NCBI GenBank assembly: GCA_964467655.1
Contig: CAYXSN010000003.1
Coordinates: 34,714-98,713, forward strand
DNA from: an uncultured Candidatus Saccharimonadales bacterium
Lineage (GTDB): Bacteria > Patescibacteriota > Saccharimonadia > UBA4664
DNA length: 64,000 bases
Direction: 5' to 3'
Under the pieces are notes generated by a model that worked only from the letters and a program-made list of their open reading frames with translations, was not told where the DNA came from and made no database searches. Every line of letters starts with the position of its first letter. Position 1 is the first letter of the stretch. Below, piece after piece: positions 44,146-60,775 of this stretch. The position numbers and the translations under genes are program-made.

Positions 44146-44580
44146 GTGATGCCAGGCAAGAAATCAGCCCCCGAACCACAAGACAATGTCCTGCAGGACG
44201 ACTTTCTCGACACCCCCATGGAGGGTGACGACGACTGGATGGCTGAAGCCGAGGGTCAACTAGCGGTAGATGTCTACCAGACCAAAGAAAACGTTGTCAT
44301 CAAGGCACCCATCGCCGGCGTCACGCCCGACAAAATCGACATCGAAGTCGCCGAAGATGTCGTCACCATCCGTGGTGAGCGGGTTGAAAACCGCGAAGTC
44401 GACCGCGAGCACTACTACGTCCAAGAGTGCTACTGGGGTGCTTTTAGTCGCTCAGTCATCCTGCCTACCTCCACGATCGCCGAAAAAGCAGCCGCAAGCC
44501 TCAAAGACGGCGTCCTTACCGTCACCATCCCTAAGGTTGCTCAAGACAAGGTCAAAAAGATCAAGGTTAAGCCAGTTTAA
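44146..44580 (+). CDS. Hsp20/alpha-crystallin-family small heat-shock protein
   Basis: Alpha-crystallin domain AVDVYQTKENVVIKAPIAGVTPDKIDIEV...VVTIRGER...GAFSRSVILP. Confidence 0.9.
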   Translation: MMPGKKSAPEPQDNVLQDDFLDTPMEGDDDWMAEAEGQLAVDVYQTKENVVIKAPIAGVTPDKIDIEVAEDVVTIRGERVENREVDREHYYVQECYWGAFSRSVILPTSTIAEKAAASLKDGVLTVTIPKVAQDKVKKIKVKPV

Positions 44581-44652: not shown

Positions 44653-45096
44653 TCAGCCGGTACTCTTAGCCAAGGCGCTAATCACGAACTGGACCAGGGC
44701 AAACGAGATAACAGCTACCACGATACCAATGACGGCGTAAAGGATAGTGTTTTTAGCCTGCTCAACATTGCTCTTCTCACCCTGAGAGATAACGTAGCGC
44801 AAACCGCCGATGATCAGGAAGATGACTGATACGGCACCTACCAGGAACACTAAAGTGTTGGCCACCGTCTGGAAGACGCCGCCTTCGGCGAACAGGTTGT
44901 TGCTCGTACCGTTAGCCTTGGCACAACTGGCACCCGAGTTCAATGGGTCTGCCGAATCGAAGCCGTCAGAACAAGCGGCATACGCCGGGGCGCTCACAGC
45001 CACTGCTGCCGCTACCGTGCCAAACCCGAAGCCAAAGACTAGGGCCAGAGCCTGCAGCGACAACGCTGTTTTCTGGGTTAATGACATGATACTCAT
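44653..45096 (-). CDS. VirB2/TrbC-like pilin-family protein, paralog 1 (signal peptide plus two transmembrane helices)
   Basis: Signal peptide, two Cys residues, then the conserved core LIIGGLRYVISQGE...AKNTILYAVIGIVVA shared with the three downstream paralogs. Confidence 0.6.
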   Translation of the reverse strand: MSIMSLTQKTALSLQALALVFGFGFGTVAAAVAVSAPAYAACSDGFDSADPLNSGASCAKANGTSNNLFAEGGVFQTVANTLVFLVGAVSVIFLIIGGLRYVISQGEKSNVEQAKNTILYAVIGIVVAVISFALVQFVISALAKSTG

Positions 45097-45174
45097 CGAC
45101 AGGTTGTCTCCTTACTATCGTTATGATATTCCAAGTTGGTCTTAGCGTAGCATATGCACAAGCGTAAGCGCAAA

Positions 45175-45498
45175 CTAACCGGCAATGGCTTGGGTCACAA
45201 ACTGAATAATGGCGTAGGCCACGATCGACACCACCACACCAACCACTGCATACAGGATCGTATTCTTAGCTTTGCCGACAGCCCCGGTATCACCTTGAGA
45301 TAACACGTACCGCAAGCCGCCGATAATAATCATAATCACCGACACACTACCCACCACAAACACCAAAATGTTGGCAATGTTAGCGATAATGTTTGATACC
45401 GACAGGTTCGTATTGCAAGCCGTGCCACAGGCGTTTTGAGCACTCTGCCCGATGATGTCTGATGCGTTCGCTAGCATAAAGCTTAAATTGTGTTCCAT
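45175..45498 (-). CDS. VirB2/TrbC-like pilin-family protein, paralog 2
   Basis: IIIGGLRYVLSQGDTGAVGKAKNTILYAVVGVVVS core. 107 aa. Confidence 0.6.
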   Translation of the reverse strand: MEHNLSFMLANASDIIGQSAQNACGTACNTNLSVSNIIANIANILVFVVGSVSVIMIIIGGLRYVLSQGDTGAVGKAKNTILYAVVGVVVSIVAYAIIQFVTQAIAG

Positions 45499-45522
45499 GA
45501 TAATCCTCGTTTCCTTGATACA

Positions 45523-45837
45523 TTAACCAGAATAAAAATCAAACCCGTCGCCAACGTTATGGGTTATAAACCACACAATCATATAAGCCGATGCCGCCAA
45601 TACAATGCCAACTACGGCGTACAAAATGGTGTTCTTGGCCGCCTTAGCTTTGCTGGGGTCGCCTTCAGAAAGAGTAAACTGCACACCCCCATACAATAGA
45701 GCTATCAACGCCAAGCCTCCGATAAGCCCCATGAGCATAAGAGTAAGATTGCTCAGACCACCGCCGATAGTATTTACATCTGTCGGCAAACCAACTTCAT
45801 CAGAGGAAATAGTGGCAGCCAGTTTCAACAAGTTCAT
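45523..45837 (-). CDS. VirB2/TrbC-like pilin-family protein, paralog 3
   Basis: LLYGGVQFTLSEGDPSKAKAAKNTILYAVVGIVLA core. 104 aa. Confidence 0.55.
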   Translation of the reverse strand: MNLLKLAATISSDEVGLPTDVNTIGGGLSNLTLMLMGLIGGLALIALLYGGVQFTLSEGDPSKAKAAKNTILYAVVGIVLAASAYMIVWFITHNVGDGFDFYSG

Positions 45838-46211
45838 CCGGCAATGCCTTTCGTCACAAAATCAACCACTGCATAGGCACCGATCAAGAGCACCAAACCG
45901 ATCACCAGATTGGTCAGAATGTCTTTGGCCCGCTTCACTCGACCGGGATCGCCCATAGAAGTTACATAATATATTGCCGCCACGATGATCATAATGACTG
46001 CCAGCGCCCCTGAAAGGGCAATCAGAATCCTCAAGAGATTGCCCACCAAAACAAAAGCATCCGACACCGCCTTCAGATGGACATTACCTGAGGCATCACA
46101 GTTCAAACCGTCCCATAAACTGGGCAGGCCACCGGTTGTAGTGCCGCACGCTCCGACGGCTTCATCTGCTGGCAGTGCCATAGGCCTCATTATAGGAAGG
46201 GGCGATAGCAA
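45834..46211 (-). CDS. VirB2/TrbC-like pilin-family protein, paralog 4
   Basis: AAIYYVTSMGDPGRVKRAKDILTNLVIGLVLL core, two Cys in the N-terminal region. Overlaps paralog 3 by 4 bp. Confidence 0.55.
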   Translation of the reverse strand: MLSPLPIMRPMALPADEAVGACGTTTGGLPSLWDGLNCDASGNVHLKAVSDAFVLVGNLLRILIALSGALAVIMIIVAAIYYVTSMGDPGRVKRAKDILTNLVIGLVLLIGAYAVVDFVTKGIAG

Positions 46212-46241: not shown

Positions 46242-49200
46242 ATGAAGTCGAGGTGGACTCTCATTGCGCTTATGGCGTGGGCCATTGTGGCACCAGCGCT
46301 CGTTGTTGTTATGCGTCCAGAAACCGCTCAAGCGGGAACACCAGCCTCCATCTTGCCGACCACATGTAACTGGACCAATACCACAACAATTACATGTAGT
46401 GGGTATCCTCAAGATGCCAGTCTAACTGTCACCTTTACACCCGACACGAGAAATCCATCAAACCCTCAACGCAGCTACAATGGCGGTACTGTCGGTACGC
46501 CAGGCGATGGAGGCACATACCAGTCTATTGAAAACGTCAGCGCCAACGGTACCAGTGGCCAATACACCGTCGATGGAACATCGCTCGGAGCCATCACGAT
46601 TGGTAATCAGGCAGCCTCAGGCCGGCCGGTCAACGCCGTCACGCCTGCCGATGCCAATGATGGTGCCGCCGATCCCGACACGGCCGTCAAATGTGACGCC
46701 GGCAAAGGCTTCACGTGGCTCATTTGCGGCACCATCGAGTGGGCCCTCAATGTGATCGATTGGATCAGAAACACCGTGCTCATCCCCATGCTCCAGCAAA
46801 AACCGTTCGACGAAGCTTCACCAGATATCGAAGCCCTCAAAAGCGTCTGGGCGGGCATGCGCAACATCGCCAGCATCGTTCTCATCCTGCTCTTCTTGCT
46901 TATTATCTTTGGGACGGCCATTGGCTACGACAACTACACCATCAAGAAAACCCTGCCCCGCCTAGTAGCCGGCGCCATCCTCATGCCATTGTCCTGGTAC
47001 ATCTGCGTCTTGCTGGTTGACCTCGGCAACATCCTAGGTGTCGGGCTCAAGGATTTAACGGCCCCCTTCATCCCTACACCGATCATTGATTTTAATTCAC
47101 CGATTTCCGAAGCTGTCTACAGCGTCGGTGGTGGTATTTTGCTCGGTGTCACTGGCTTTACCGCCTACACTGGCATGCTCTGGCCGGTATTGCTAGGCAT
47201 GGTCGTTGGCTTGGCCGGCGCCTTTCTCACCCTGGTACTGCGCAACATCTTGATTCTCGTCTTAACGGCCATTAGCCCTTTGGCAATGCTCGCCTACATA
47301 TTGCCCAATACCAAGAAATTCTATGACATGTGGCTGAGCAATTTCCTGCGCTTGATCCTCATGTTCCCTTTTATTATCTTGTTATTCCAAGCTGGCCGCC
47401 TATTTGCCGCCATCGCCGGAGCTGGCACCAATCCTATAAACACAATCTTTGCTCTTGTCGGACTGATGCTACCACTATTCTTAGTACCTTGGAGCTTTAA
47501 GACAGCTGGTCAAGCGTTGTCATTCGGTAGAGGCTACATCGATAAAGCTACTGGCATGGGCAAGCGGTACGGTTCAGACAAAATTGGCAACGCGATTAAG
47601 CGTCAGAGAGACAAAACCCGTGAAGCCAACAAAGCTCTTCGCCAGCATAACGCTATCCAGCGAGCAAAAGACATCGACAAAGAGGCCCCCACCAACCTCG
47701 GAGGTAAACTATCCAATAACGTCCGTCAACGAGTCGCCATGAAAAAAGCCGGGCATGGAGGCTTCCTTGGTGGCAAGGGTAATGTACTGCAGCAGCAAAA
47801 GTTTGAATCAGCGTACAGTGAAGCCGCCGCCACACAAGGCAAGATCGAGGCCGCCAAACTGGCTGGCGCTACCGGCACTAGCGAAACACACAAACAGCGC
47901 ATCGAAGCCGAAACCGCCATGGCACTCAAAGGCATTACCGACGGCCGGGCCAATCGTGCAGGATTCATGCAAGCTGTCGGCGAAGCCAATGGAGCCGAAC
48001 TTCCAGACAAAATGATCAGCTTCGCCCAGGCTAGTTACGCCGCCGGCACCGAATCCAGCCGTAAGAGCAATGCCAAGCTCCTCGGCACAGGAACCGGCGT
48101 TCAAGCCGCTGCCGCTGCGGGCGGTTTAGCTTCAACGGGGGCAATCGTCGCAGACGCCAGAGAAACCCAGATTGATAGCCTCAGTGACGAAAAAGGCCAG
48201 GTGGAAGGCCGCCTGATTGGTCAAAGGCACCTTGAGGACGTTGAACTCCAACGAACTGGCGTTAATCCGGCCACGGCAACGACGGCCCAAAGAGAAGCAG
48301 TCCAAAATAGGTTGCAACGCTATCGCCAAACCGATGCCCGCGTCAAAGCACGAGATACTGTACTTGAAGAAGGCGGGACCAAACGTCAGAGCCAAGCCGA
48401 TTTTACAACTCATGGATACCAAGATGTTGAGGAAGTTGAGGGTTCCGCTGCCCTCGAGCAACGTAGTAAGCTATCTACCACTCGCCAAGTCCGCCGCCAA
48501 CGCGTGGCCATCCAGGGTACAGCCGAGGGTGGCATGAGCGACGCAGATATTGAAATGGCGGCCAGTCGTGAAGCTCGCGAGAGCATTGGCGCCCAGGTCA
48601 TGAAGCAAAGGGTAGGCAACGAGACTGAGAGAGCCGACTTGGCTTCAGGTGACGCTACCCGTCGACCAACCCTCACCAACTCACTGATTGCCGCCCGAGG
48701 CCGGGCCGAAGAAAGCGCTTCCGCTGAGAGCGCCCAACGCACGGCCTACGTCAGATCTGCTCTTGGATACGAAAGCGAAAAACCATCTCGGCCATCGCTC
48801 GAAGAACGTATCCAAGATGCCTCTTTCAAAGCCACAACAGACCAGCGCACCAAAGACCTATCAGTCGGTGAGCGTCTCAGCGAAATCAGCAAGGCCGAAG
48901 ACCGGGTCCTTTTGAGCCAAAAAATCGATCCGGCTACCGCCTCAGCTGGTCAACGAGCCGATGCCAGGGCGAGCATTAGTGGCAAAATTGCCATCCAGGG
49001 CTCAGGGGAAGCCGGTTACAAAATGCGCATGGACATCGCCAAAGCCCGCGGCGAAGTCGAGGGCTTCGAAAAAGGCGTTAAGCAGCTCCAAATCGAAGAA
49101 ACTGCCAAGAACCTGCGCGAGAAAGCCATCGACGCCCATCTGGCTGCCAACACCGGCGCCACCAGAGCCGAAGCCGAAGAGGCTGTCGACAGCAATCCGG

Positions 49201-50633
49201 CCAACGATTTCAAGCGCGAGGCCGAACACAACGTTGAAGCTCTAGCCGCCGGCGCTCCGGCCCATCCCGATACTGTCACCTCGGACCAGGCCAGCCGCAT
49301 GTACCACGACGCTGGCGCCGAAAGCGCCTACACCTCAGCTGCCCAAGCCCAAGCCAATTCCATCGGCCAAGCCGTCGGTAAGGGACAGTCGGTCACAGCT
49401 GCGGTTGCTAACCGTGCGTCGACTAACCTCCTAGAGCTCGCCCGCGCCCACGGAGCAGCTCGTGGCATCACGAATGATGACCAAGCCATGGAGTCGTTCC
49501 TTGATGAACAAGTTCGCCTGACAGGCAGTGGCACGCCTGGTGTAGCCGCCGACCGCGAACAAGCCCGCCAGGCTTTACTCACGCAAATGGCCGCACAGGC
49601 TCAATCGGAAGTCATTTCTGCCGCTACGTTGGCAGGCATCGATAGCGGTGTCCGCAGTGAGGCAGCGGCCCAAGGACAACTTATCTCACAGGAAGAATCC
49701 TACAATTCGCCGACTAAATCCACAGCAGCTGATCAGCTAGAAATGGCTCGAAGAGACGCCAGTACAAACCTGGCCAGCAAAGAAGGAACCGACCAAGCCC
49801 GTTCACGCCAGCCCAAACTGGATTACTCGACAACAGTTGAGTCAACCAGGAAAGAAGCTCTTGACAAGTTCTTTGCTCAGAGAGTCCAAGAATCGGGCCG
49901 CAAATTCGTGATAGATGCCAACACCGGCAAACCAACTCCCGACCGAATCGATACTGCAGCGCCAACCAAAGATAACCAAGCCTCACTTCGTAAAATGGCA
50001 GAAGAAGCCTTCGACACGGGCGACTACGAGACCTTCGCAGCCTGCACCAATGCTTTGGGTCAAAACGGCAGTGGACGTGATATCGTCAGGGAGATTATTG
50101 AATCGAAGTTCGGATACGATGATAAGAACCGTATCAATCCTACCATCGCTGATCAGATCCGCAAAACAGCCAAAGCTAACGGCAACCCTGAATTCGACCC
50201 CGAATCATTCTTTAGTGCTGCAGTTTCGCGAATCAACAAAGATAAAGCACCATACTTATTTAAACCACGGGACGCCGCTTTTGGTAAACTACCTTCAAAT
50301 GAATTTGCGGCTCTCGATGACCGCGGCAAAATGCAGTACTTCCAGTGGGCAAGTGGCAAAGTTGGTACGACCGATGAAGCAAAGATCAGAGGTGAAGCCG
50401 TTTCCAATATGCACGAATCGGTCACCAACAAATCTCTCAAGCCCAATCCGGGCAACGCTGATTTTGATGCCATGTACCGCTACCTCTATGAGATTGATCC
50501 CACTACTAAGGCGGTTATAGGGCCAAATGCAGATAATATGAAGGCTTTTGAGGCACAATTTGGAGGGAATACTGTCAAATTCGGCCAAGCTATCGCCGAT
50601 ATTGAACGCGGCTTTAAATCACATAATGCCTAA
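46242..50633 (+). CDS. VirB6/TrbL/TraG-like polytopic membrane protein with a ~1000-aa Ala/Glu/Arg/Gln-rich C-terminal extension
   Basis: 1463 aa. N-terminal signal peptide, a Cys-containing ectodomain (~170 aa), 6-7 transmembrane helices (~aa 200-460), then a long charged low-complexity tail. Transcribed divergently from the pilin genes. Confidence 0.55.
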   Translation: MKSRWTLIALMAWAIVAPALVVVMRPETAQAGTPASILPTTCNWTNTTTITCSGYPQDASLTVTFTPDTRNPSNPQRSYNGGTVGTPGDGGTYQSIENVSANGTSGQYTVDGTSLGAITIGNQAASGRPVNAVTPADANDGAADPDTAVKCDAGKGFTWLICGTIEWALNVIDWIRNTVLIPMLQQKPFDEASPDIEALKSVWAGMRNIASIVLILLFLLIIFGTAIGYDNYTIKKTLPRLVAGAILMPLSWYICVLLVDLGNILGVGLKDLTAPFIPTPIIDFNSPISEAVYSVGGGILLGVTGFTAYTGMLWPVLLGMVVGLAGAFLTLVLRNILILVLTAISPLAMLAYILPNTKKFYDMWLSNFLRLILMFPFIILLFQAGRLFAAIAGAGTNPINTIFALVGLMLPLFLVPWSFKTAGQALSFGRGYIDKATGMGKRYGSDKIGNAIKRQRDKTREANKALRQHNAIQRAKDIDKEAPTNLGGKLSNNVRQRVAMKKAGHGGFLGGKGNVLQQQKFESAYSEAAATQGKIEAAKLAGATGTSETHKQRIEAETAMALKGITDGRANRAGFMQAVGEANGAELPDKMISFAQASYAAGTESSRKSNAKLLGTGTGVQAAAAAGGLASTGAIVADARETQIDSLSDEKGQVEGRLIGQRHLEDVELQRTGVNPATATTAQREAVQNRLQRYRQTDARVKARDTVLEEGGTKRQSQADFTTHGYQDVEEVEGSAALEQRSKLSTTRQVRRQRVAIQGTAEGGMSDADIEMAASREARESIGAQVMKQRVGNETERADLASGDATRRPTLTNSLIAARGRAEESASAESAQRTAYVRSALGYESEKPSRPSLEERIQDASFKATTDQRTKDLSVGERLSEISKAEDRVLLSQKIDPATASAGQRADARASISGKIAIQGSGEAGYKMRMDIAKARGEVEGFEKGVKQLQIEETAKNLREKAIDAHLAANTGATRAEAEEAVDSNPANDFKREAEHNVEALAAGAPAHPDTVTSDQASRMYHDAGAESAYTSAAQAQANSIGQAVGKGQSVTAAVANRASTNLLELARAHGAARGITNDDQAMESFLDEQVRLTGSGTPGVAADREQARQALLTQMAAQAQSEVISAATLAGIDSGVRSEAAAQGQLISQEESYNSPTKSTAADQLEMARRDASTNLASKEGTDQARSRQPKLDYSTTVESTRKEALDKFFAQRVQESGRKFVIDANTGKPTPDRIDTAAPTKDNQASLRKMAEEAFDTGDYETFAACTNALGQNGSGRDIVREIIESKFGYDDKNRINPTIADQIRKTAKANGNPEFDPESFFSAAVSRINKDKAPYLFKPRDAAFGKLPSNEFAALDDRGKMQYFQWASGKVGTTDEAKIRGEAVSNMHESVTNKSLKPNPGNADFDAMYRYLYEIDPTTKAVIGPNADNMKAFEAQFGGNTVKFGQAIADIERGFKSHNA

Positions 50634-50735: not shown

Positions 50736-51560
50736 ATGGGACAATACACCGTACCGCAAAACGTTGAAGCCGAAGACCATATCTTAGGCCCGCTAACGTT
50801 CAGGCAGTTCATCTACATGATGATCGGCCTGGGCTGGGTGATTATTACCTTCGCCTTGTTCCGCAAACTGATTGCGGCCTTCATTGTCATTGGTGTGCCA
50901 CCGACCATTTTGTTCATGCTGCTAGCTTTCTTCAGACGCGACGGCCAGGACTTCGAGCATTTACTGGTAGCTGTGGTCGGCTTTTTTGCCGCTCCCCGCC
51001 AGCGCTTGTGGATCAAAGAAGAAACCATCGAAACCTTCCACATCACGCCCACAGCCAAACAGGCCGAAATCACCCAACGTAACCCACAGCTAGTCATCAG
51101 TGAACTCGAGAAGTTGGCCGTGCTCATTGACTCCCGGGGCTGGAACCTGCCGACTGCCCCCGAGGTCACGCCTCAGCTCATCATGCCCAGCACACCGGCC
51201 TCGGCCCGCATCGTCCAGCCAGACAATACTCCCTCAAACATCACCGCTCCCCACACCGACATGCTCGACCTCCAAAACAGCCCGCTGGCCCAAAACCTCT
51301 CGGTGCTGCTCCAACAGTCAGCCGACCATGTCAAGCAGTCGGCGGTCAGCGGCATGACACCGGGTAGTGAACTACCCGCACCGACTCATTTTGCCACGCC
51401 CGTCAAAAGCATAAGCGGCGTGACAGGCCTCGCCCAAGACGATATACTACGGTTAGCTACCCAGAGTGAGGGAATGAGCATTGCCTCTGTTGCGGCCCAA
51501 GCCACGCGCTTGAGCCCAGACAGTGGCGCAAATGTGGAGCCAGTTGCCAATGCCAGCTAA
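50736..51560 (+). CDS. Small membrane protein (two N-terminal transmembrane helices; VirB3/PrgI-like position) with a Pro/Ser-rich tail
   Basis: FIYMMIGLGWVIITFALF and FIVIGVPPTILFMLLAFF helices lie directly upstream of the VirB4 ORFs. The VirB3 assignment rests on position only. Confidence 0.4.
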   Translation: MGQYTVPQNVEAEDHILGPLTFRQFIYMMIGLGWVIITFALFRKLIAAFIVIGVPPTILFMLLAFFRRDGQDFEHLLVAVVGFFAAPRQRLWIKEETIETFHITPTAKQAEITQRNPQLVISELEKLAVLIDSRGWNLPTAPEVTPQLIMPSTPASARIVQPDNTPSNITAPHTDMLDLQNSPLAQNLSVLLQQSADHVKQSAVSGMTPGSELPAPTHFATPVKSISGVTGLAQDDILRLATQSEGMSIASVAAQATRLSPDSGANVEPVANAS

Positions 51561-52284
51561 TTCAGCCAGCAAAACCGGGAAAAGCACCCAACAAACGCTT
51601 TTGATTTCCGAAATCAAAGATGGCGTGGTAGTTTTGCGTGACGGCTCCATTAGAGGCGTCATCCTCGGGAGTGCCATCAACTTTGAGCTCATGAGCAGTC
51701 AGGAGCAACAAGGCATCGAGATGGCCTACCAGAGCTTCCTCAACTCACTTCATTTCCCAATCCAAATTGTCATTCGTTCAGAACGCATCGACCTGTCAGC
51801 CTACATCGACAGGATGCAAGCCAAGCGCACCGAGCAATCAAACGAGTTGTTGGGTGCCCTCATGGACGATTACATCGCCAATGTTAAATCGCTGGTCGAT
51901 GAGGTCAACATTATGGACAAGCAGATCTACATTGTGGTGCCATATTTCCCCGATGTAGCCACAGGCAAATCACCGGCGCTCGTCAAAAACATCAAAAATG
52001 CATATAGCACCCCACCAGACATTACGATCACCGAAGAAGAATTCAAGGCCTACAAACAAGAATTGTCAGAACGGATGGCCTTGGTCTCGAGCGGCCTCGG
52101 CCAGATCGGCATCAGGGCGCTGGCACTTGGCACCCAAGAACTAGTCGATCTCTACTATACCTGGTACAACCCCGACATCGCCCACAACCAGAAGCTGATT
52201 GAAGCCGAGCAGCTCACGGCTCCCGTGGTCCTCAAAGGCGACGGCCGAGCACCCCACACCACCATTGAGGGAGGTCCTTTCTGA
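51523..52284 (+). CDS. VirB4/TrbE-family N-terminal domain, encoded as a separate ORF
   Basis: LLISEIKDGVVVLRDGSIRGVILGSAINFELMS...GIEMAYQSFLNSLHFPIQIVIRS matches the VirB4 N-terminal region. Its stop overlaps the next start (TGATG). Confidence 0.55.
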   Translation: MAQMWSQLPMPANSASKTGKSTQQTLLISEIKDGVVVLRDGSIRGVILGSAINFELMSSQEQQGIEMAYQSFLNSLHFPIQIVIRSERIDLSAYIDRMQAKRTEQSNELLGALMDDYIANVKSLVDEVNIMDKQIYIVVPYFPDVATGKSPALVKNIKNAYSTPPDITITEEEFKAYKQELSERMALVSSGLGQIGIRALALGTQELVDLYYTWYNPDIAHNQKLIEAEQLTAPVVLKGDGRAPHTTIEGGPF

Positions 52285-54173
52285 TGGGACTTTTTGGCCC
52301 ACCCAAACCCAAAGTTGATCCTGGGGCTCTGGCTGCCTACCAGCAAGCTATGGAGCAACGCGAGGCCGAGCTCATTTACCGCCAAGGCATCATCACCATG
52401 CGCGACCTCATTGCGCCTTCGTCATTGGAGATCGACGCCAATTACCTGAGGATTGGCAAACGCTATTGCAAGACGCTCTACGTGTATGGCTACCCCCGCC
52501 AGGTGTTCACCGGTTGGCTGTCGCCAATTATCAACCTCGATGAAATCATCGACATCTCACTTTACATCTACCCCGTGGAATCGCGCGTCGTTCTCGACAA
52601 CTTACGCAAAAAAGTCACCCAGATGGAAGCTTCGTATGCCATCAACGAAGAGAAAGGCAAAGTGCGCGACCCAGGCCTTGAAGCCGCGCTCCAGGACGCC
52701 GAAGAGCTCAGGGACAAGCTCCAAGTTGGCGAAGAGCGGTTCTTCAGGTTTGGTATGTATCTCACGATGTACGCCGATTCCATTGACGCCATGACCGATC
52801 TCAACCGCAAAATCGAGGGCATTTTCGGCCAGTCGCTGGTGTACACCAAAGCCGCCACCATGCAGATGGAGCAAGGCTTCAACTCCACGAGTCCCTTGGC
52901 CAACGACCAGCTCCAGATCTCGCGCAACATGGACACCGGAGCCCTGTCCACCAGCTTCCCGTTCACTTCAGCTGAACTATCTCGCAACGAAGGCATCCTT
53001 TACGGCCTCAACCGCCACAACAACGGCCTGGTGCTTTTCGACAGGTTCTCGCTCGAAAACGCCAACATGGTGGTATTCGCTAAATCCGGTGCCGGTAAAT
53101 CGTTTTCCATCAAACTTGAAGCCTTGCGCTCTCTCATGATGGGCATCGAAATTATCGTAATTGACCCCGAAAACGAGTACAAAACCCTCTGCGAAGCCGT
53201 TGGCGGCACCTATCTGCGCCTCAGTTTGGCCAGTCAAACTCGCATCAACCCCTTCGACCTGCCGCGAGTATTCGACCAAGATGAAGCCGACAACGCCCTC
53301 CAAGCCAACATTATTACACTGCACGGCCTGTTGCGCCTCATGATCGGTGGCGCCACAGTCTCAAACTCCACCGGCGCCACCAGCGTAACCTCCCTTACTC
53401 CCAGCGAAGACGCCGACCTCGATCTGGCAATCATCAATACCTACGCCCGCGCCGGTATCACCCGCGACCCCCTCACCCACAATGCCACCCCGCCCACCAT
53501 GAACGATCTCTACAATACTCTGGCCTCCATGACGGGCAACGGCCCCGACCTGGCCATGAGGCTACGCAAATTCACCACCGGCACGTTCTCGGGTATTTTT
53601 TCAGAGCAATCAAACGTCGAAATCAACAACCCCTTCCTGGTATTCAACATTCGCGACCTCGAAGACGAACTACGGCCCATCGGCATGTACATCGTGCTCA
53701 ACTACATCTGGAACAAGGTCAAATCAGATCGTCGCAAACGCATCCTAGTAGTCGACGAAGCCTGGCAACTTATGAAGTACGACGACTCAGCCGCCTTCAT
53801 GTTTAGCCTGGCCAAACGGGCCCGCAAATACTTCCTCGGCCTCACCACCATCTCCCAAGACGTCGAGGACTTCTTAAGCAACAAAATGGGCCGGGCCGTG
53901 GTCGCCAACTCATCACTCCAGCTCTTACTCAAGCAAGCCCCTTCAGCCGTCGACATTATTGGCGAAACCTTCAAGCTCACGAACGAAGAAAAAGCCAGGC
54001 TCACCGAATTCCCGGTGGGAGAAGGCTTATTCTTCGCTGGACTCAATCACGTCATCATCAGAGTCCTGGCGTCCGAAACCGAAGCCAGCCTCATTAGCAC
54101 CAATCCAGCCGACAAAGGTCAGGCGCCATCAGCCCCCACTGAAACATCAGCGCCAGCGGAACAAGGAGCATAA
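52284..54173 (+). CDS. virB4: Type IV secretion/conjugation ATPase VirB4 (TrbE/TraE/PrgJ-like), central and C-terminal ATPase region
   Basis: Walker A FAKSGAGKSFSIK and Walker B ILVVDEAWQLM. The VirB4 middle region (LIAPSSLEIDANYLRIGKRYCKTLYVYGYPRQVFTGWL) is also present. 629 aa. Confidence 0.88.
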   Translation: MGLFGPPKPKVDPGALAAYQQAMEQREAELIYRQGIITMRDLIAPSSLEIDANYLRIGKRYCKTLYVYGYPRQVFTGWLSPIINLDEIIDISLYIYPVESRVVLDNLRKKVTQMEASYAINEEKGKVRDPGLEAALQDAEELRDKLQVGEERFFRFGMYLTMYADSIDAMTDLNRKIEGIFGQSLVYTKAATMQMEQGFNSTSPLANDQLQISRNMDTGALSTSFPFTSAELSRNEGILYGLNRHNNGLVLFDRFSLENANMVVFAKSGAGKSFSIKLEALRSLMMGIEIIVIDPENEYKTLCEAVGGTYLRLSLASQTRINPFDLPRVFDQDEADNALQANIITLHGLLRLMIGGATVSNSTGATSVTSLTPSEDADLDLAIINTYARAGITRDPLTHNATPPTMNDLYNTLASMTGNGPDLAMRLRKFTTGTFSGIFSEQSNVEINNPFLVFNIRDLEDELRPIGMYIVLNYIWNKVKSDRRKRILVVDEAWQLMKYDDSAAFMFSLAKRARKYFLGLTTISQDVEDFLSNKMGRAVVANSSLQLLLKQAPSAVDIIGETFKLTNEEKARLTEFPVGEGLFFAGLNHVIIRVLASETEASLISTNPADKGQAPSAPTETSAPAEQGA

Positions 54174-54179
54174 GAGGAA

Positions 54180-57100
54180 ATGGCACTGCGTTCTGCCGCC
54201 GGTCTCAAATCTAGCTCCGGCATGGAGCCACCCCGCCAGACGTTCAAAGATGCTCTGGTAGCCCAGAAAGCTTCAAGTAGCCAGAAAACAACTACCGCCC
54301 AAAAGCCGGTTATGACGCAAATGTCACCGATGGGCGGCAGTCAAACCTCCAAGCCCGACACCATCACTAGACCCCGTAATGAATCAATCAACGAACCCAA
54401 TACGGCGTCCAATACCAGCATCGCACCTTCGTCTCAGGCCGCCGACCTCAAAACCGGAGATAGCAAATTCGATGCCGTCCACGGCGACAACCGCGGTCAG
54501 CAAATGGTCGCCAACGCCGGCACCGCCCGGCCCGAAGCCAATGACGACGCCTGGGCCTCACCCGACGCCACGGCATCCTCCAATGCTGGTGGCCCACCAG
54601 ACTCGGGTGGAAAAGCGGGCGTCATGTCTCCGGGCGCCGATCCAAACCGTGCCAGTCAATCTAGAATACCTGGCAATGATGCCGAGGCCCGAGCCAACTA
54701 CGCCAACAACGTCAGTAACGGCCCGGTCGGCCGCCGGATTGCCGGCAAGACGTTCGATTTTGCCAACCGTCACCGTAAATCGCTGATCTTTGGCGGCGGC
54801 GGCATGGGTATTGTCCTAGCGTTAATCTTTGCCACGCTTGCCTTCTTGCCCCTCAAACTTGAATCATTCATGAATAACGTTATCAGCAACGAAGGCAAGC
54901 GGATGGAGCATTACGCCACGCGGCGCGCCGAGATCATGACCTACCGCTACCTCATGAACGCCGCCAACGGCACTATTGAATCAGACCCTTTGTATACCAG
55001 CTCCAATATCGTCAGGATGATGTGGGGTAACTTCCAGAAAGACAGGTTTATCGAGAAACTCCAGACTTCCAAAGGCATCACAGTGGAAAGGGGTGGCAGC
55101 GCCGGCAGTATCAGATTCACGACCGCCAGTGGCCAAGTAGTGGAAGCGAGTAATCTGAGTCAGCTCATGGACGTCCTCAAAAGCAATCCAGCCGGTACTG
55201 GCATTGAGGCAGAAATTGGCAAGTTCATGGAAAACGAGTACAAATGGTTCCGTATCTTTCAGCGCCGCTCTATCAGATACTACTTAGCCAAAGCTTACGG
55301 TATCAAACGCTGGAGCATCGACAAAAAAGAAGACAAGGTTGACCCGAAGTCCAAGGTACACAGCACCGAAATCCAGGCGCGCGAACTGGCCCTCGATGGA
55401 CCAAATGAAAAAACCATCAATGCCATCGGTTGTGTCGCCGCACCCGAAAACTGCAACGGCGAAGACTCCAATCGCCGCAGTACCGACCCCAATGGCGAAT
55501 CAACAATCGACCCGCCAAATACCACTGGGGGCAATGAAGAAGAGTCCAAAGCTCAGGCCGAAGCCAAAAAAGGTTTGCTTGAGCGCTACCGCAACCTCAA
55601 AACTACTGCCGGCAACAAAATTCTAGCGACCCTCACCGAACTGATTGGTAGTGAAGTGATAGCGAAAGGTATTCTGAAAGCCGTACCCTTCATCGGCTGG
55701 ATCTCGTTTGCGGCCGACATCGACCATTTCATCTGGGGTGGTAGCTGGTCGCAAGTCGGCATCAATCTGCGCGCCTTGCAATACGTAAGCGTCGCCCAAA
55801 CCTGGGCTACCCTCAAAGACCAGATGAAGGCCGATGAGCTGACTGCCAGCCAAATCAATGTGCTTATGCTTATGCTCGACGGCATTGAAAAATCAAACGC
55901 TTTCCAGCGCACCAATTCAGCCAATACCAATGGCGGTGTCACCATCCCGGAAGAAAAACGGGTAGGCAGCGATGGTGCCTTTATCGATCCCGAACCGGCC
56001 GGTCAGGGTATTTGCGGCATTACCTATCCACTGTCAAACGAATACCGGGGCATCCCGGTAAACGGCTTGTCTATTACCAACTACGAACCCTGGACGCTCC
56101 TGTACCGTCGTGTAGTCACAACACCACTGCTGATTGGCGCCGGCAACGTTCACTTTGACCTCTGTACTTTCAGGGCCGTATTCCAGCGTTTTATGGGCGT
56201 CATCATGCTTGGGGTCAAGAACATTCCGGGTGTCGGGCAGTTTATCTCTACATTCCAGACCCTCACTCAGTTTGTTATGCAAACCGAAATCATTCAGCGC
56301 CTCGTCGAGCAGGGCAGCCACTACGTCACGGCCTTCCTCGAACGTGTCTTCGGACTGGTATACAACGGCGAATGGGGGGCGCCACTCGCCAACACCATTG
56401 ACGGTGGCTGGGAAGTAATCACAAATGCCGTCACCCGTGACCACATGGGTGGTAAGGCCATTAGCTATAGCCTCAGCTATGAACAAACCACCCAGTACGC
56501 TCTTGAGGACCAACAGAAACTCAATGCCGAGGGACCCTTTGCTAGTCTGCTCGCTTGGAATACGCCAGGCTCAACCGGCTCTAAACTACTGGCAGCCTTA
56601 CCATCAACCCCATCAGCTCTCGCCAACCGTTTTACCGATCTCGCCAGCAGCCTCTTTTTACACCCCGCCAGTTATTTCAGTAAATTAGCGTACAACTTTA
56701 GTACCGGTAGTCTGGCCGTCGATCCAGCCAGCTTGCGCTCTCCCGCAGGCGTCATGCACATTGGCTTTGATGCTGCCGAGGTCAACGACAGCAACATCTA
56801 CATTGCCGTCAAAGACATCAACGGACCACCAGTCAATGGCGCCTACCCCGGCCAGCCCGACGGCCGCATCGATGAGTACGACTGCATCGAAGGGAGCGGT
56901 AGTGGCGAGAGCTTGCACATAGTCGGTACTACTGACAGGGCCGATGACATCACCAAAACCAACCGCTGCCTCTACGATACCTCAGTGGCCCTACCGCTCT
57001 GCTCCGGCGGCTCCTCCAATGACGACGGGGGACTGGGCCAAGGCGGCGATCCCGGTCCATGTGGCCGTGTCGCTGGCACCTCAGCTACAGGCCAAGCCGG

Positions 57101-57977
57101 CAGCCCGCTCACCGCCAACTGGATGTCCGGCGCCAGCTTCATGCAGGGCGATTACAACGGTACACCCAAGACAACTGGTTTCGGCACGTGGCGTAACAGT
57201 TCACCGGTCACCATTGTGGGCACCTGGTGCGACAAGCCAGGCTGTACCGATGGATCCGCCGCCAATGATTACGACTCATTCAACGGCGCCATGGACATCG
57301 CCATCGGCGGCATCTTCAAACAAAACGGCGAATCCTGGTCGGCCGCCGCCGGCGGAGCCTACAATTCTCGTTGGCAAGGTGCCATCAGCAACATCGCCTC
57401 CCACCGCCAGGGTAAAGGCCTCACATTCATCAGGTTTGCTCACGAAGCCAATATGAACTTCTCAGACTGGAGCGTCATGCCGGGTGAAGAAGCCAACTAC
57501 ATTACTACTTTCTGCAACGTAGCCAACATGGCGCACGCCGCCGGTCTCAAGGTGACCTGGTCGCTCAATGACGGCACACTGGGCGGCGCTGCCGGCCCTG
57601 CCACCATGTATCCCGGTGACGCCTGCGTCGACGTCGTGGGACCCGACACCTACGACTGGGACACGCCTCAGGTATCGGTCGTAAATGGTCAGGTTACCGG
57701 TATCGAATCATGGCGCCAGTTTGCCCTAAGCCACAACAAGCCCCTAGCCTTCCCCGAATGGGGCGCCAACAACACCCAAGGCCAGACCAAAGATAACCCC
57801 GCCTACATCACCGCCATGAACACGTTCATGGCTACCAACGGCGGATCAGGCCCAGGCCAGTTCATCTATGACATCTATTTCAATGAAGACGAGAGTGGCT
57901 ACCGCATCGGATTATGGCCAACCGCCGATGTCCCGCAGATGGCTAACACCTATAAAGCTCTCAAGTGGGGGAATTAA
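54180..57977 (+). CDS. Large single-pass surface protein with a C-terminal glycoside-hydrolase-like (clan GH-A, GH26/GH5-like) TIM-barrel domain
   Basis: 1265 aa. Disordered N-terminal ~210 aa, transmembrane helix GGGGMGIVLALIFATLAFLPL, and a ~1000-aa exodomain. C-terminal FIRFAHEANM (candidate acid/base Glu) and LAFPEWG (candidate nucleophile Glu). Confidence 0.5.
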   Translation: MALRSAAGLKSSSGMEPPRQTFKDALVAQKASSSQKTTTAQKPVMTQMSPMGGSQTSKPDTITRPRNESINEPNTASNTSIAPSSQAADLKTGDSKFDAVHGDNRGQQMVANAGTARPEANDDAWASPDATASSNAGGPPDSGGKAGVMSPGADPNRASQSRIPGNDAEARANYANNVSNGPVGRRIAGKTFDFANRHRKSLIFGGGGMGIVLALIFATLAFLPLKLESFMNNVISNEGKRMEHYATRRAEIMTYRYLMNAANGTIESDPLYTSSNIVRMMWGNFQKDRFIEKLQTSKGITVERGGSAGSIRFTTASGQVVEASNLSQLMDVLKSNPAGTGIEAEIGKFMENEYKWFRIFQRRSIRYYLAKAYGIKRWSIDKKEDKVDPKSKVHSTEIQARELALDGPNEKTINAIGCVAAPENCNGEDSNRRSTDPNGESTIDPPNTTGGNEEESKAQAEAKKGLLERYRNLKTTAGNKILATLTELIGSEVIAKGILKAVPFIGWISFAADIDHFIWGGSWSQVGINLRALQYVSVAQTWATLKDQMKADELTASQINVLMLMLDGIEKSNAFQRTNSANTNGGVTIPEEKRVGSDGAFIDPEPAGQGICGITYPLSNEYRGIPVNGLSITNYEPWTLLYRRVVTTPLLIGAGNVHFDLCTFRAVFQRFMGVIMLGVKNIPGVGQFISTFQTLTQFVMQTEIIQRLVEQGSHYVTAFLERVFGLVYNGEWGAPLANTIDGGWEVITNAVTRDHMGGKAISYSLSYEQTTQYALEDQQKLNAEGPFASLLAWNTPGSTGSKLLAALPSTPSALANRFTDLASSLFLHPASYFSKLAYNFSTGSLAVDPASLRSPAGVMHIGFDAAEVNDSNIYIAVKDINGPPVNGAYPGQPDGRIDEYDCIEGSGSGESLHIVGTTDRADDITKTNRCLYDTSVALPLCSGGSSNDDGGLGQGGDPGPCGRVAGTSATGQAGSPLTANWMSGASFMQGDYNGTPKTTGFGTWRNSSPVTIVGTWCDKPGCTDGSAANDYDSFNGAMDIAIGGIFKQNGESWSAAAGGAYNSRWQGAISNIASHRQGKGLTFIRFAHEANMNFSDWSVMPGEEANYITTFCNVANMAHAAGLKVTWSLNDGTLGGAAGPATMYPGDACVDVVGPDTYDWDTPQVSVVNGQVTGIESWRQFALSHNKPLAFPEWGANNTQGQTKDNPAYITAMNTFMATNGGSGPGQFIYDIYFNEDESGYRIGLWPTADVPQMANTYKALKWGN

Positions 57978-59260
57978 TAACAGCCATGCTCAAGCGTTTT
58001 ACCACCATTCTCGTCCTCGCACTTACAGCACAGCTGGCGTTTGCCCCGACTGCTAAAGCCATTTTCAACTACGACAATAAAGCAGTTACCAAAGAATACA
58101 TCTATTGGGACAACCGGGTGACTGCCGATTGCCCCAGCGCCACCGACCTGTCAGGAAACAGTCCTACCGGCACCGATTCGGCGGCAGCCGCTGCCCGCAA
58201 GAAAGTTATTTGGGATTTTCTTACAGCTCCCGGCCGTCTGACAGCCCCTCAAGCTGCTGGGGTACTGGCCAATATGACAGTTGAAAGTGCCCATACTTTT
58301 GATCCAACGATTGTGCAGGGCGGTACCTATAAAGCCACGCCTGAAGGCGTGAATAACGGTTACGGCATCGTGCAATGGACTCCCGGCACCAAACTACTGA
58401 AATATGCCGACATTGCCGCAAACCCCACGCTCGGAGGCAACCTCACCCGCCAGCTGAACGTCCTATGGGACCAGCTAACCAATGCGAGCTCGCCGTTACC
58501 GGAAAAGGCTGCCGGCGACGCCCTCAAAGCCACCACTACAGCCGAGCAAGCTGCCGTAGCCTTTATGATCGGGTATGAGCGGCCGGCCGACAAGTCACTG
58601 GATGCCCGAGACGGCCGCGCAGCCTTAGCCAACCCCATCCTCGTCGAAATGACCGGCGGCACCAGTGGCACGATTACGCCTCTAACGACCACAAATGGCA
58701 CTCCCGTCACCACATCATCAAGCTGCCCGTCGGCTACATCCCAAGCCAGCGCTAGCATTGATACAGCCCATATGTTTGAGTCATCAGTGAGTATCCAATG
58801 TGCTCCCGGCACAACTGATGCCGGCGTTCAAGACGGCTACCACAATGGTATCATGGTCAAGATCAGGGTCTGCGCCATACCAAACTTTCCATGCACCAAT
58901 GAAGAATGCCAGGAACTCGGCAATGGTCATGCCCTAGTGAACTCCCGAGCCTCTGGCGCAATCCTCAAGATGATTACCGACGCCATAGCTGCCCGTGATC
59001 AAGCAGGTAAGAGTTATCAGATCAACGCGTCATCAACCTTCCGTACTATGGCCCACCAGACAGCCCTCTATAATGCGCCTCACTCCGATCCAGTTGCCAA
59101 ACCCGGCTTCTCCAATCACCAGATGGGCCTAGCGATCGATTTCGGCTTCTGGAAAAATACCAATACCGGACTCTATGATTGGCTCAAAGCCAACGCCTCG
59201 CGATATGGCTACCAGCAACTGCCAAGTGAAGTTTGGCACTGGTCCACCAATGGTGGTTAA
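57965..59260 (+). CDS. Secreted bifunctional cell-wall hydrolase: phage-tail-lysozyme-like domain plus peptidase-M15 (VanY/D-Ala-D-Ala carboxypeptidase-like) domain
   Basis: Signal peptide MLKRFTTILVLALTAQLAFAPTAKA. N-terminal domain ANMTVESAHTFDP...GYGIVQWTPG. C-terminal domain SNHQMGLAIDF (SxHxxGxAxD) plus EVWHW (ExxH). Confidence 0.7.
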   Translation: MGELITAMLKRFTTILVLALTAQLAFAPTAKAIFNYDNKAVTKEYIYWDNRVTADCPSATDLSGNSPTGTDSAAAAARKKVIWDFLTAPGRLTAPQAAGVLANMTVESAHTFDPTIVQGGTYKATPEGVNNGYGIVQWTPGTKLLKYADIAANPTLGGNLTRQLNVLWDQLTNASSPLPEKAAGDALKATTTAEQAAVAFMIGYERPADKSLDARDGRAALANPILVEMTGGTSGTITPLTTTNGTPVTTSSSCPSATSQASASIDTAHMFESSVSIQCAPGTTDAGVQDGYHNGIMVKIRVCAIPNFPCTNEECQELGNGHALVNSRASGAILKMITDAIAARDQAGKSYQINASSTFRTMAHQTALYNAPHSDPVAKPGFSNHQMGLAIDFGFWKNTNTGLYDWLKANASRYGYQQLPSEVWHWSTNGG

Positions 59261-59287
59261 AATAATAACTCAATAGGAAGTACCCCA

Positions 59288-60775
59288 ATGCGCCTAAAAC
59301 TTATCCTCCTAGCCCTCGGCATTACGATACTAGCTGCCAGTGCCAGCCTCTGGAACTATTCAAGGATTCAAATGAGCGTGCCCAACATCTCTGGTGAGTA
59401 CACCATCACCCTAGAGAACCAAGCCGATGGCAAAGCCACCGTCACCAAGACTAGCTCCAAGTCTTTCAGCAAAATCGTCAGCAAAGGCTCCTACCGGGTC
59501 ATTGTGACCCAGGGCCAAAACTCCCGCTTCTTTCTCATTGATACAGCTCCGTTTTTGGCGACCACCAGCGTCACCGCCGAGCTTCAGACCCAGATCGCCC
59601 GCAGTTACATCGGCAACAGCCCCGGGGACTGCTTTTACCTAATCGCCAATGTTGCCCTTTCCAGCACTTGTACCGGTAGTCAGAGCCACATGACGTTACA
59701 CACACCAGCCACGGCCACCCAAGCCAGCTACAACCAGGATTACATCACCATCAGAGGCCGGTTCATGGACAGTCTCGAAACCGCCGGCGGCACAATAGTG
59801 TTGAGCCAGTCCATTGGTGATAGCGGTCCGCTGCTGCATCTGTTTACCGGTAAACTCGAACCCGCCAAATCAACTGAACTTTCAGGTCTGAAAGCCGGTG
59901 TTGAGTATCGCTTAAGCAATTATAAAGCTGGCTTTTTAGTCCATAACTTTGATTTTTCGGACGTCCAGTACTATTCGGCCTTCGGTGCCGCTGCTCAAAG
60001 CGTCACGTTTGAGGCTGCTCAAACCAAAGCATCCAAGCCCTCGGCAGTAGCCACCAACAACCAAGCGACAGCTGTAGCCTATTTCTCTGAGCGTTCCGAA
60101 GAAGACCAAGGCAAAAATATCACTGAAATCGTCTTGTCGACTCCCGGCAAAGCCACCCAGCATTTTACCACCCAAGGCCATATCACCAAACTCATGTTCT
60201 GCTCAACCCAAACTCTGTGCGCCCTCAACAGCTTGGGCAGTAGCCTGCAAGTTTACAAGCTTGAGGACAAGGGGATAGACAACGATTTTGACATCAAAGA
60301 TGTTTCAGATTTCTTACTCTATCAGAACCAGATTGTGGCCGCCCAAGGCAAAAGTGTTTACCGCATTAATCCTGATGACCAATCAGGCTTCCAAGAATAC
60401 AGCTTTGGTGCCTATAACTTCTGCGGCTTCAGCCCCGCACCCAACGGCTACGTACTCTGCATCGCTGGCGCCAAAAACGGCCGGGCGCTCCTGAGACTTG
60501 ATGAAACAGCCGCCATCATCAACTCGGGTGCCATCGACCAGCAGTTAGCAAGCCTAAGTACCAAAACCGACATCATTAACCAGATCAGCGCCTACGGCCG
60601 GTTTATCACGGTAGTCCCCAAAGGTGACCTCATCATGAACTGGACCGCCCGCCGCCTTGAGCCAGACCCCGTAAAACAAGCCACCATCAACGGTCAAATC
60701 AATGCCACCATCAACGAACTTGGTATTGATAGAAGCAAGTACCAGATTTCAATTACCGCACCTCTCGGTGATTAA
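59288..60775 (+). CDS. Secreted hypothetical protein (495 aa) at the distal end of the T4SS-like cluster
   Basis: Signal peptide MRLKLILLALGITILAASASL. Composition looks beta-strand-rich. No known motif. Confidence 0.5.
   Translation: MRLKLILLALGITILAASASLWNYSRIQMSVPNISGEYTITLENQADGKATVTKTSSKSFSKIVSKGSYRVIVTQGQNSRFFLIDTAPFLATTSVTAELQTQIARSYIGNSPGDCFYLIANVALSSTCTGSQSHMTLHTPATATQASYNQDYITIRGRFMDSLETAGGTIVLSQSIGDSGPLLHLFTGKLEPAKSTELSGLKAGVEYRLSNYKAGFLVHNFDFSDVQYYSAFGAAAQSVTFEAAQTKASKPSAVATNNQATAVAYFSERSEEDQGKNITEIVLSTPGKATQHFTTQGHITKLMFCSTQTLCALNSLGSSLQVYKLEDKGIDNDFDIKDVSDFLLYQNQIVAAQGKSVYRINPDDQSGFQEYSFGAYNFCGFSPAPNGYVLCIAGAKNGRALLRLDETAAIINSGAIDQQLASLSTKTDIINQISAYGRFITVVPKGDLIMNWTARRLEPDPVKQATINGQINATINELGIDRSKYQISITAPLGD

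Follow-up and report, generated by a model that had tools for sequence, protein, structure and literature searches.

In a 64,000-nucleotide stretch of contig CAYXSN010000003.1 from an uncultured Candidatus Saccharimonadales bacterium (here called the window), we examined a gene for a membrane protein of 1463 amino acids. We consider it reasonably probable that this gene encodes a VirB6-type polytopic membrane subunit of a monoderm-type (MPF-FATA-like) type IV secretion system (T4SS) of a saccharibacterium (class Saccharimonadia), and that its long C-terminal tail is a cytoplasmic tether. The gene and the parts of its product are as follows.

46242 to 50633, plus strand: VirB6-type gene, a single ATG-to-stop open reading frame (ORF) of 1463 amino acids
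46242 to 46334, plus strand: signal peptide, residues 1 to 31, with K2 and R4 in the n-region, a hydrophobic stretch at 5 to 23 and an A-Q-A/G site
46335 to 46691, plus strand: variable exported ectodomain, residues 32 to 150, rich in T, S, N, G and P, poor in K and R, with Cys42 and Cys52
46692 to 46853, plus strand: Cys151/Cys162 pair, amphipathic helix (residues 158 to 184) and loop before the first transmembrane (TM) helix, from core alignment A1 and an AlphaFold2 (AF2) model
46854 to 47501, plus strand: VirB6/TrbL-like polytopic membrane core, residues 205 to 420, from hydropathy, AF2, the TrwI profile match and Foldseek
47502 to 48221, plus strand: basic juxtamembrane segment, residues 421 to 660, from charge counts, AF2 and BLAST coverage
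48222 to 49781, plus strand: hypervariable, alanine-rich, nonrepetitive polyampholyte linker, residues 661 to 1180, from composition and a ratio of nonsynonymous to synonymous substitution rates (dN/dS) of 0.25 to 0.52
49782 to 50630, plus strand: conserved C-terminal globular domain, residues 1181 to 1463, largely alpha-helical apart from two small beta elements; one hairpin resembles a tetratricopeptide repeat (TPR)

The ORF is intact and under selection

The ORF runs uninterrupted for about 4.4 kb at a G+C content of 53%, well past chance expectation. A preliminary description of this DNA, made from the letters and an ORF list, had reported an ORF of this length, and the listing confirmed its exact coordinates. 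Six contigs hold an identical 1463-amino-acid protein, and the two that we examined come from independent sequencing runs (SRR6747781 and SRR21798915), which rules out an assembly artifact. Together with conserved synteny around the gene, this led us to reject an assembly or fusion artifact as its origin. Comparison with a 90%-identical allele (P0001, locus L004) gave dN/dS values of 0.07 for the core, 0.16 for the juxtamembrane segment and 0.22 for the linker overall, and the entire ORF is therefore under protein-level selection.

The membrane core is that of a VirB6 protein

Kyte-Doolittle hydropathy gave six hydrophobic segments between residues 201 and 420, and an AF2 model of residues 140 to 480 (predicted local distance difference test [pLDDT], 78.7) placed long helices over residues 194 to 414. 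The core carries a conserved DNYTIKKxLP cytoplasmic loop and an LPNTxKxFxxW loop. When a profile built from 22 core sequences (A1) was compared with the Protein Data Bank (PDB), it matched TrwI, the VirB6 protein of R388 (7o3v_F), with an E value of 1.6e-4, and the family LPNTxKxFxxW loop aligned with QPTHRFFDQW of TrwI, between hydrophobic helices. TrwI was also the sole match in a single-sequence phmmer search of PDB sequences (E = 0.046). Foldseek ranked TrwI/VirB6 chains first to fifth among PDB matches to the core model (probability, 0.92 to 0.97), and the precomputed record for the exact 1463-amino-acid protein carries PF19590 (TrbL_3). As in R388 TrwI (PDB 7o3v, 8rt9) and Agrobacterium VirB6, this polytopic helical core is encoded beside VirB3/VirB4 and pilin genes.

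Taken singly, these signals are modest. The same Foldseek matches are weak by other measures (E values of 0.02 to 0.16, template modeling scores [TM-scores] of 0.24 to 0.40 and root mean square deviations of 10 to 13 Å), and Pfam TrbL (PF04610) matched residues 1 to 480 with an E value of 0.015 and 15.5 bits, against a cutoff of 25.9; a whole-protein Pfam scan at E ≤ 0.01 returned no family. Because gene position, the TrwI profile match, the Foldseek ranking and the TrbL_3 record agree, we regard the assignment of the core to VirB6 as secure. The polytopic core of six to seven helices and the VirB6/TrbL identity proposed in the preliminary description thus both stand. That description had also named the lack of a transmembrane core, or a clear relationship to a non-T4SS transporter family, as observations that would tell against it; the hydrophobic core was found, no search returned such a family, and we rejected that candidate. 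A likeness to F-plasmid TraG, proposed at the same time, did not hold up, as Pfam scans to E = 10 with the whole protein and with residues 1 to 480 returned neither TraG_N nor any TraG family.

A hypervariable linker joins the core to a conserved C-terminal domain

The core is followed by about 1040 hydrophilic residues (A, 16%; G, 8%; E, 8%; S, 7%; R, 7%; one Cys), in agreement with the extension of roughly 1000 residues described earlier. Neither Pfam nor NCBIfam assigned the tail to a family. BLAST coverage along the protein, measured over 172 relatives, divided this region into parts: about 160 subjects covered the core, 2 to 5 covered residues 800 to 1120, and about 20 covered residues 1160 to 1440. 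Over the juxtamembrane segment, in which AF2 placed helices at residues 418 to 444 and 448 to 479, coverage fell gradually from 147 to 18 of the 172 subjects.

Hydrophobic residues make up 18 to 19% of the linker, which has no Cys and no Trp. Its dN/dS climbs to 0.52 in residues 901 to 1105 in the comparison with P0001, and it can be aligned over its full length with P0004 at about 30% identity. The preliminary description had called the extension low complexity and suggested a long coiled coil or fibrous stalk built on recurring motifs such as AxxxGxxEAxR. None of these features was recovered. With a window entropy of 3.50 bits, about that of other regions, the linker is compositionally biased and not truly of low complexity, and the last 270 or so residues form a folded domain. 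The motif has no literal match, and the submotifs EAxR and GxxEAxR have none either. Hydrophobic periodicity at 3.5, 3.6 and 7 residues did not rise above that of shuffled sequences (z, −1.5 to +1.4); the 3.5-residue heptad signal scored z = −1.5 by Kyte-Doolittle hydropathy and z = +1.0 when residues were classed simply as hydrophobic or not. BLAST with masked windows found no internal repeats in the 1463-amino-acid protein, while the same test detected repeats of about 70 amino acids in the relative P0006. Pairs of opposite charge at positions i and i+4 are enriched in the linker (z = 2.7), which suggests ordinary salt-bridged helices and not a coiled coil.

Among relatives, the core and the C-terminal domain are separated by as few as 39 and as many as 1518 residues; in the window protein this spacer measures about 700. 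On a neighbor-joining tree of the cores, proteins with short spacers are intermingled with those that have long ones. Duplications of units of about 70 amino acids are present in the tails of some relatives, clearly in P0006 (residues 526 to 935) and more weakly in P0021 (residues 1063 to 1571); repeats in P0002 were also weak in the masked-window search. Judged from these sequences, the variable regions of both ectodomain and tail may grow by tandem duplication followed by divergence. A Pfam search of ten long tails of relatives for a domain that might reveal their compartment returned only subthreshold noise.

At the C-terminal end, AF2 modeled the last 270 to 280 residues as a compact domain (pLDDT, 88; predicted TM-score, 0.81), over which 15 homologous sequences align (A2). 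An exhaustive hidden Markov model (HMM) search of 1.84 billion representative proteins found 62 with this domain. All matches with a detectable VirB6 core have it at their C-terminal end; those lacking a core are mostly short sequences, which we took to be fragments. As far as these searches reach, the domain is found only in the present VirB6 family. With an iterated domain HMM, it was not detected in the Nanosynbacter VirB6 versions checked, and hhalign comparison with the common saccharibacterial VirB6 tails of about 350 amino acids gave probabilities of 1 to 31%.

Matches of the domain to PDB profiles were confined to the one hairpin (alphaRep, E = 0.0012; BcsC TPR, E = 0.0037). Pfam and NCBIfam held no family for it, the Foldseek viral library gave no match, and family and PDB profile searches revealed neither a P-loop nor an ATPase signature. 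We infer an alpha-helical domain that is specific to the family and whose probable function is to bind protein.

The tail is predicted to lie in the cytoplasm

To assign the tail to one side of the membrane, we applied the positive-inside rule to family means over the 22 cores. Throughout the family, the sequence preceding the first TM helix is net acidic. The loop at residues 231 to 242 holds 2.6 Lys plus Arg (K+R) and no acidic residues, that at 267 to 309 is slightly net acidic, and that at 357 to 365 carries 1.95 K+R. The first 60 residues of the tail (421 to 480) hold 13.1 K+R against 4.8 Asp plus Glu (D+E). A model with five or seven TM helices, the N terminus outside and the C terminus inside (N-out/C-in), places about 18 K+R on the inner side against about 5 on the outer; for a literal six-helix model with the C terminus outside, the values are about 4.5 and about 19, respectively. 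The five-helix version takes residues 310 to 356 as one unit, which AF2 modeled as a 40-residue helix and a short one; the seven-helix version counts residues 287 to 309 as a further helix.

Composition was consistent with this assignment. Charged residues account for 26 to 29% of the tail, similar to the cytoplasmic proteins of the window, compared with 15 to 16% in its two exported T4SS proteins, and the tail also exceeds the protein's own ectodomain in this respect. Of the six cysteines (positions 42, 52, 151, 162, 255 and 1268), four are in the exported N-terminal part and one is in the 1040-residue tail. In Agrobacterium VirB6, reporter fusions gave five TM helices with a periplasmic N terminus and a cytoplasmic C terminus, and the topology predicted here agrees with it. 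On these sequence-based grounds we judge it likely that the protein is N-out/C-in, which would place the whole tail in the cytoplasm. The preliminary description had envisaged a contact or adhesion element protruding from the cell; the charge around the membrane segments puts the tail inside the cell and not at its surface, and a reading of the tail as an adhesive stalk or surface adhesin is not supported.

The alternative that survives best, although we think it unlikely, is an external stalk: with an even number of TM helices, a tail of about 1000 residues would be exported through the cell wall, and the terminal domain would touch the host or a pilus. The C-terminal domain of F-plasmid TraG does act outside the cytoplasm, and a spacer length that varies strongly between lineages is what envelope-spanning or host-adapting parts display. 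Against an external position stand the 13 K+R versus 4.8 D+E past the last TM helix in 22 relatives, which constitute a strong signal for cytoplasmic retention; a tail composition that differs from that of the ectodomain and of the two exported T4SS proteins of the window; the lack of heptad periodicity and repeats, which leaves no sign of a fibrous coiled coil; the single Cys of the tail; and the lack of a TraG_N match.

Several points nevertheless favor an external tail or otherwise weigh against a cytoplasmic tether. Taken at face value, the six hydropathy segments that follow the exported N terminus would leave the tail outside, and the C-in assignment leans on the charge rule and on treating residues 310 to 356 as one unit or residues 287 to 309 as a helix. 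In the assembled R388 machine (PMC9259494), the membrane contains just the VirB6 helices alpha1 and alpha2, and hydrophobic alpha5 to alpha7 form part of the stalk; most of its hydrophobic helices are thus outside the bilayer, and the position of sequence past the last helix in the assembled machine is for that reason uncertain. The passages on the R388 structures do not state the location of the VirB6 C terminus. One homolog, at locus L018 (3145 to 7599, 1485 amino acids), ends in a G/P/S/T-rich low-complexity region of several hundred residues, unlike the alanine-rich linker and of a kind often seen in wall-spanning segments. The linker may be helical or disordered. For the terminal domain, Foldseek gave only weak matches, to 14-3-3 proteins (probability of about 0.9; TM-score of about 0.25).

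Proposed role of the tail

By analogy with R388 TrwI (PMC9259494) and PrgH of pCF10 (bioRxiv 10.64898/2025.12.18.695078), the core probably forms a pentameric platform for pilin assembly. The tail would then be a flexible, length-tolerant cytoplasmic tether that presents the predicted protein-binding domain where the machine opens into the cytoplasm. There, the terminal domain might dock either a substrate or some partner, for example VirB4/TrsD or a coupling protein encoded elsewhere.

We also considered whether the linker is neutral filler, an expansion-prone spacer that merely joins the core to the terminal domain. As regards the linker itself this is compatible with the tether model, and it accords with a spacer length that varies 40-fold, with the interspersion of short and long forms on the core tree, with the scarcity of relatives that align over residues 800 to 1120, with the recent tail duplications of about 70 amino acids in some relatives, and with dN/dS values of up to 0.52 in residues 901 to 1105. 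Purifying selection on the linker (dN/dS of 0.22 overall), its identity of about 30% to P0004 over the full length, and the retention of 2 to 4.5 kb of such coding sequence in small genomes (contigs of up to about 1.1 Mb) argue in the other direction, and we hold filler to be improbable.

A further idea, which we rate as very unlikely in its two versions together, is that the tail is more than a passive tether and does active work in a feeding machine, its spacer length being tuned to the envelope or partner of each lineage. In one version, the linker would be threaded through the channel or pilus and the terminal domain would reach the host while still anchored through VirB6; in the other, the basic segment and the terminal domain would capture incoming host macromolecules, for example RNA, at the cytoplasmic mouth.

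A tail that starts in the cytoplasm, with a linker prone to be unfolded that is threaded via the T4SS channel or the pilus and brings the still anchored terminal domain to or into the host, has a model in F TraG, whose C-terminal domain has been proposed to reach TraS in the recipient cell. The low hydrophobicity of the linker (18 to 19%), its lack of Cys, Trp and stable repeat structure, and spacers of up to about 1500 residues that, if extended, would cross two cell envelopes suit such a path, as do the unknown substrate of the essential T4SS (PMC10633639) and the tubular structures reported to reach the host envelope in another member of the Patescibacteria (bioRxiv 10.64898/2026.06.21.733656). 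We nonetheless find this highly improbable, as orthologs with spacers of only 39 to 115 residues, too short for host reach, retain the same core and terminal domain, and the latter is predicted to be stably folded.

The N-terminal ectodomain is variable

The signal sequence proposed in the preliminary description is borne out by a Kyte-Doolittle segment at residues 4 to 26 and an A-Q-A/G cleavage-type site, read from the translation, near residue 31. This stretch is 81% identical to the N terminus of P0001. The Cys-bearing ectodomain of about 170 residues, also proposed there, was recovered as an exported part with cysteines at positions 42, 52, 151 and 162. Within it, residues 32 to 150 are 34% Ser, Thr and Asn and only 3% Lys and Arg. 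C151 and C162 are invariant across 22 relatives (C12 and C23 of alignment A1, in which W20 is invariant too), and an AF2 helix at model residues 19 to 45 covers the amphipathic helix. The sequence preceding the core is 43 to 461 amino acids long among relatives.

Between residues 32 to 150 of the window protein and residues 28 to 255 of P0001, similarity was undetectable, although the remainder of the protein is 90% identical. The synonymous rate along the gene, in the comparison with P0001 at L004, fluctuates from 0.07 to 0.63. From the sequences, the difference in the ectodomain looks like a cassette-type replacement or recombination of a surface-exposed part. The ectodomains of P0002 and P0021 contain internal duplications, with units offset by about 95 residues in the masked-window search. 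The N-terminal ectodomain is the part of the protein that looks surface exposed and variable.

Relatives and comparison with known systems

A scan of GTDB species genomes found at least 556 related loci, almost all of them labeled Saccharibacteria or Saccharimonadia, and the earlier guess that the DNA came from an epibiont or from a bacterium of the candidate phyla radiation was correct. For length statistics we used the 97 complete ORFs in the best 80 of these loci. Their median length is 981 amino acids and that of the post-core part 353 residues; tails of at least 800 residues occur in only 7 of the 97. A typical saccharibacterial VirB6 protein has 800 to 1200 amino acids, some 250 to 400 of them after the core, and is often encoded in tandem pairs, whereas the window has a single gene with 1040 post-core residues.

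Many loci contain two tandem VirB6-like paralogs, of about 840 and of about 940 to 1100 amino acids, in place of the single giant gene of the window. These include L050 (6921 to 12383, Nanosynbacter sp. TM7-008), L051 to L056, L061, L066, L068, L074, L078 and L081. A 1003-amino-acid protein with both the VirB6 core and the C-terminal domain is encoded at L079 (6903 to 9914 of NZ_WBKF01000001.1), on a 1.55-Mb scaffold labeled Pseudoclavibacter sp. CFCC 11306, an actinobacterium from the phylum that typically hosts Saccharibacteria. Its neighbors are a ResIII/DEAD helicase and a GmrSD nuclease and not the usual T4SS genes, and the local G+C content is 57%. Horizontal transfer, a mobile element or a mislabeled scaffold could account for it.

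Compared with TrwI (342 amino acids), to which its sequence similarity is low, the window protein is longer by about 170 exported residues and some 1040 residues at its C-terminal end. VirB6 of Agrobacterium, with 295 amino acids, has no ectodomain led by a signal peptide and only a short C-terminal tail. An extended VirB6 class has been described in which the VirB6 core is joined to at least one large hydrophilic domain, central or C-proximal (Alvarez-Martinez and Christie, as cited in PMC12857230), and the function of these extensions is stated to be unknown (PMC12857230). Given the lengths of their post-core tails, all members of the present family are extended VirB6 proteins in this sense. 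Like RvhB6 of the Rickettsiales and TcpH of Clostridium perfringens, the window protein has a C-proximal domain, large and hydrophilic, in addition to its VirB6 core; its tail differs in that searches found no sequence or profile similarity to any described family. In TcpH, a cytoplasmic C-terminal domain binds other transfer proteins. By sequence comparison, the pairing of a hypervariable spacer with a conserved terminal domain is specific to the present Saccharimonadia subfamily.

With F-plasmid TraG, the window protein shares the plan of a large T4SS membrane protein with a polytopic N-terminal part and a big hydrophilic C-terminal part. The C-terminal domain of TraG acts in the periplasm or in the recipient cell, whereas the window tail has no TraG match and is predicted to be cytoplasmic, and its system is of the monoderm type and not F-type. 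FtsK/SpoIIIE provides an architectural analogy only, with a membrane domain, a variable linker and a conserved cytoplasmic C-terminal domain. Its linker is long, low in hydrophobicity and variable in length between species. There is no homology to it, and the terminal domain of the window protein lacks the P-loop and ATPase signature.

The surrounding T4SS locus

The genes on either side of the VirB6-type gene are those of a T4SS.

44653 to 45096, 45175 to 45498, 45523 to 45837 and 45834 to 46211, minus strand: four VirB2-like pilin paralogs (T4SS_pilin, PF18895; E values of 2e-8 to 2e-12)
50736 to 51560, plus strand: PrgI/VirB3-like gene (PrgI, E = 5e-13)
51523/51550 to 52284, plus strand: TrsD/TraC-like gene (NCBIfam TrsD, E = 8.5e-9)
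52284 to 54173, plus strand: VirB4 ATPase (P-loop_TraG, E = 7e-26; NCBIfam VirB4-like CD1110 family, monoderm, E = 7.7e-107)
54180 to 60775, plus strand: distal T4SS genes, for a 1265-amino-acid membrane-anchored protein, a lysozyme and VanY cell wall hydrolase (Phage_lysozyme2 and VanY domains) and a 495-amino-acid exported protein

The pilin array (44653 to 46211, minus strand) is transcribed divergently from the VirB6-type gene. It adjoins an HSP20 small heat shock gene (44146 to 44580, plus strand), an arrangement also present in the three related loci that we inspected, as if this gene were part of the conserved T4SS neighborhood. The gene order of the locus, including HSP20, is conserved around a 2221-amino-acid ortholog on a 1.1-Mb contig and around an 833-amino-acid ortholog. 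The TrsD-like protein (51523 to 52284; 244 to 253 amino acids) also matches the N-terminal part of VirB4-like ATPases (NCBIfam, E = 5e-6); its gene is directly upstream of that for VirB4 and overlaps the PrgI gene by about 10 to 40 nucleotides. It may be a split N-terminal domain of VirB4.

The 1265-amino-acid protein (54180 to 57977, plus strand) has one TM segment, at residues 200 to 231, and a large S/T/N-rich C-terminal part, in which residues 1045 to 1212 weakly resemble a GH26 mannanase/endoglucanase H (PDB profile, E = 1e-3). Its sequence makes it more plausible than the VirB6 tail as an element that contacts or digests the host wall.

The locus is of the same system type as the patescibacterial T4SS of Quinonero-Coronel et al. 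(PMC12102498), and it resembles the Southlakia epibionticum ML1 locus SEML1_0006 to SEML1_0019 in its multiple VirB2-like pilins, PrgI, TrsD, VirB4 and TrbL_3 (PF19590). For the S. epibionticum T4SS, the only saccharibacterial one investigated to date, no recognizable coupling protein or relaxase was found (PMC10633639, PMC12102498).

Implications

The saccharibacterial T4SS, its VirB6 gene and the extended VirB6 class are already known. The tail architecture, in which a hypervariable spacer leads to a conserved terminal domain, appears to be undescribed in the literature on patescibacterial T4SSs. The T4SS and virB6 of Saccharibacteria are reported as essential for epibiotic growth (PMC10633639, PMC12102498), the T4SS having been shown to be so in S. 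epibionticum (PMC10633639), and among T4SSs it is the first with a reported essential role in the growth of its owner (PMC12857230); its cargo and direction of transport are unknown (PMC10633639). VirB6 is the subunit of this system that probably serves as a platform for channel and pilus. For host contact, the N-terminal ectodomain and the 1265-amino-acid protein encoded downstream are better candidates than the tail. A family-specific domain carried on a freely varying spacer offers an experimental handle on the substrate or the energizing partner, and the tail may thereby give practical access to the cargo of this essential machine.

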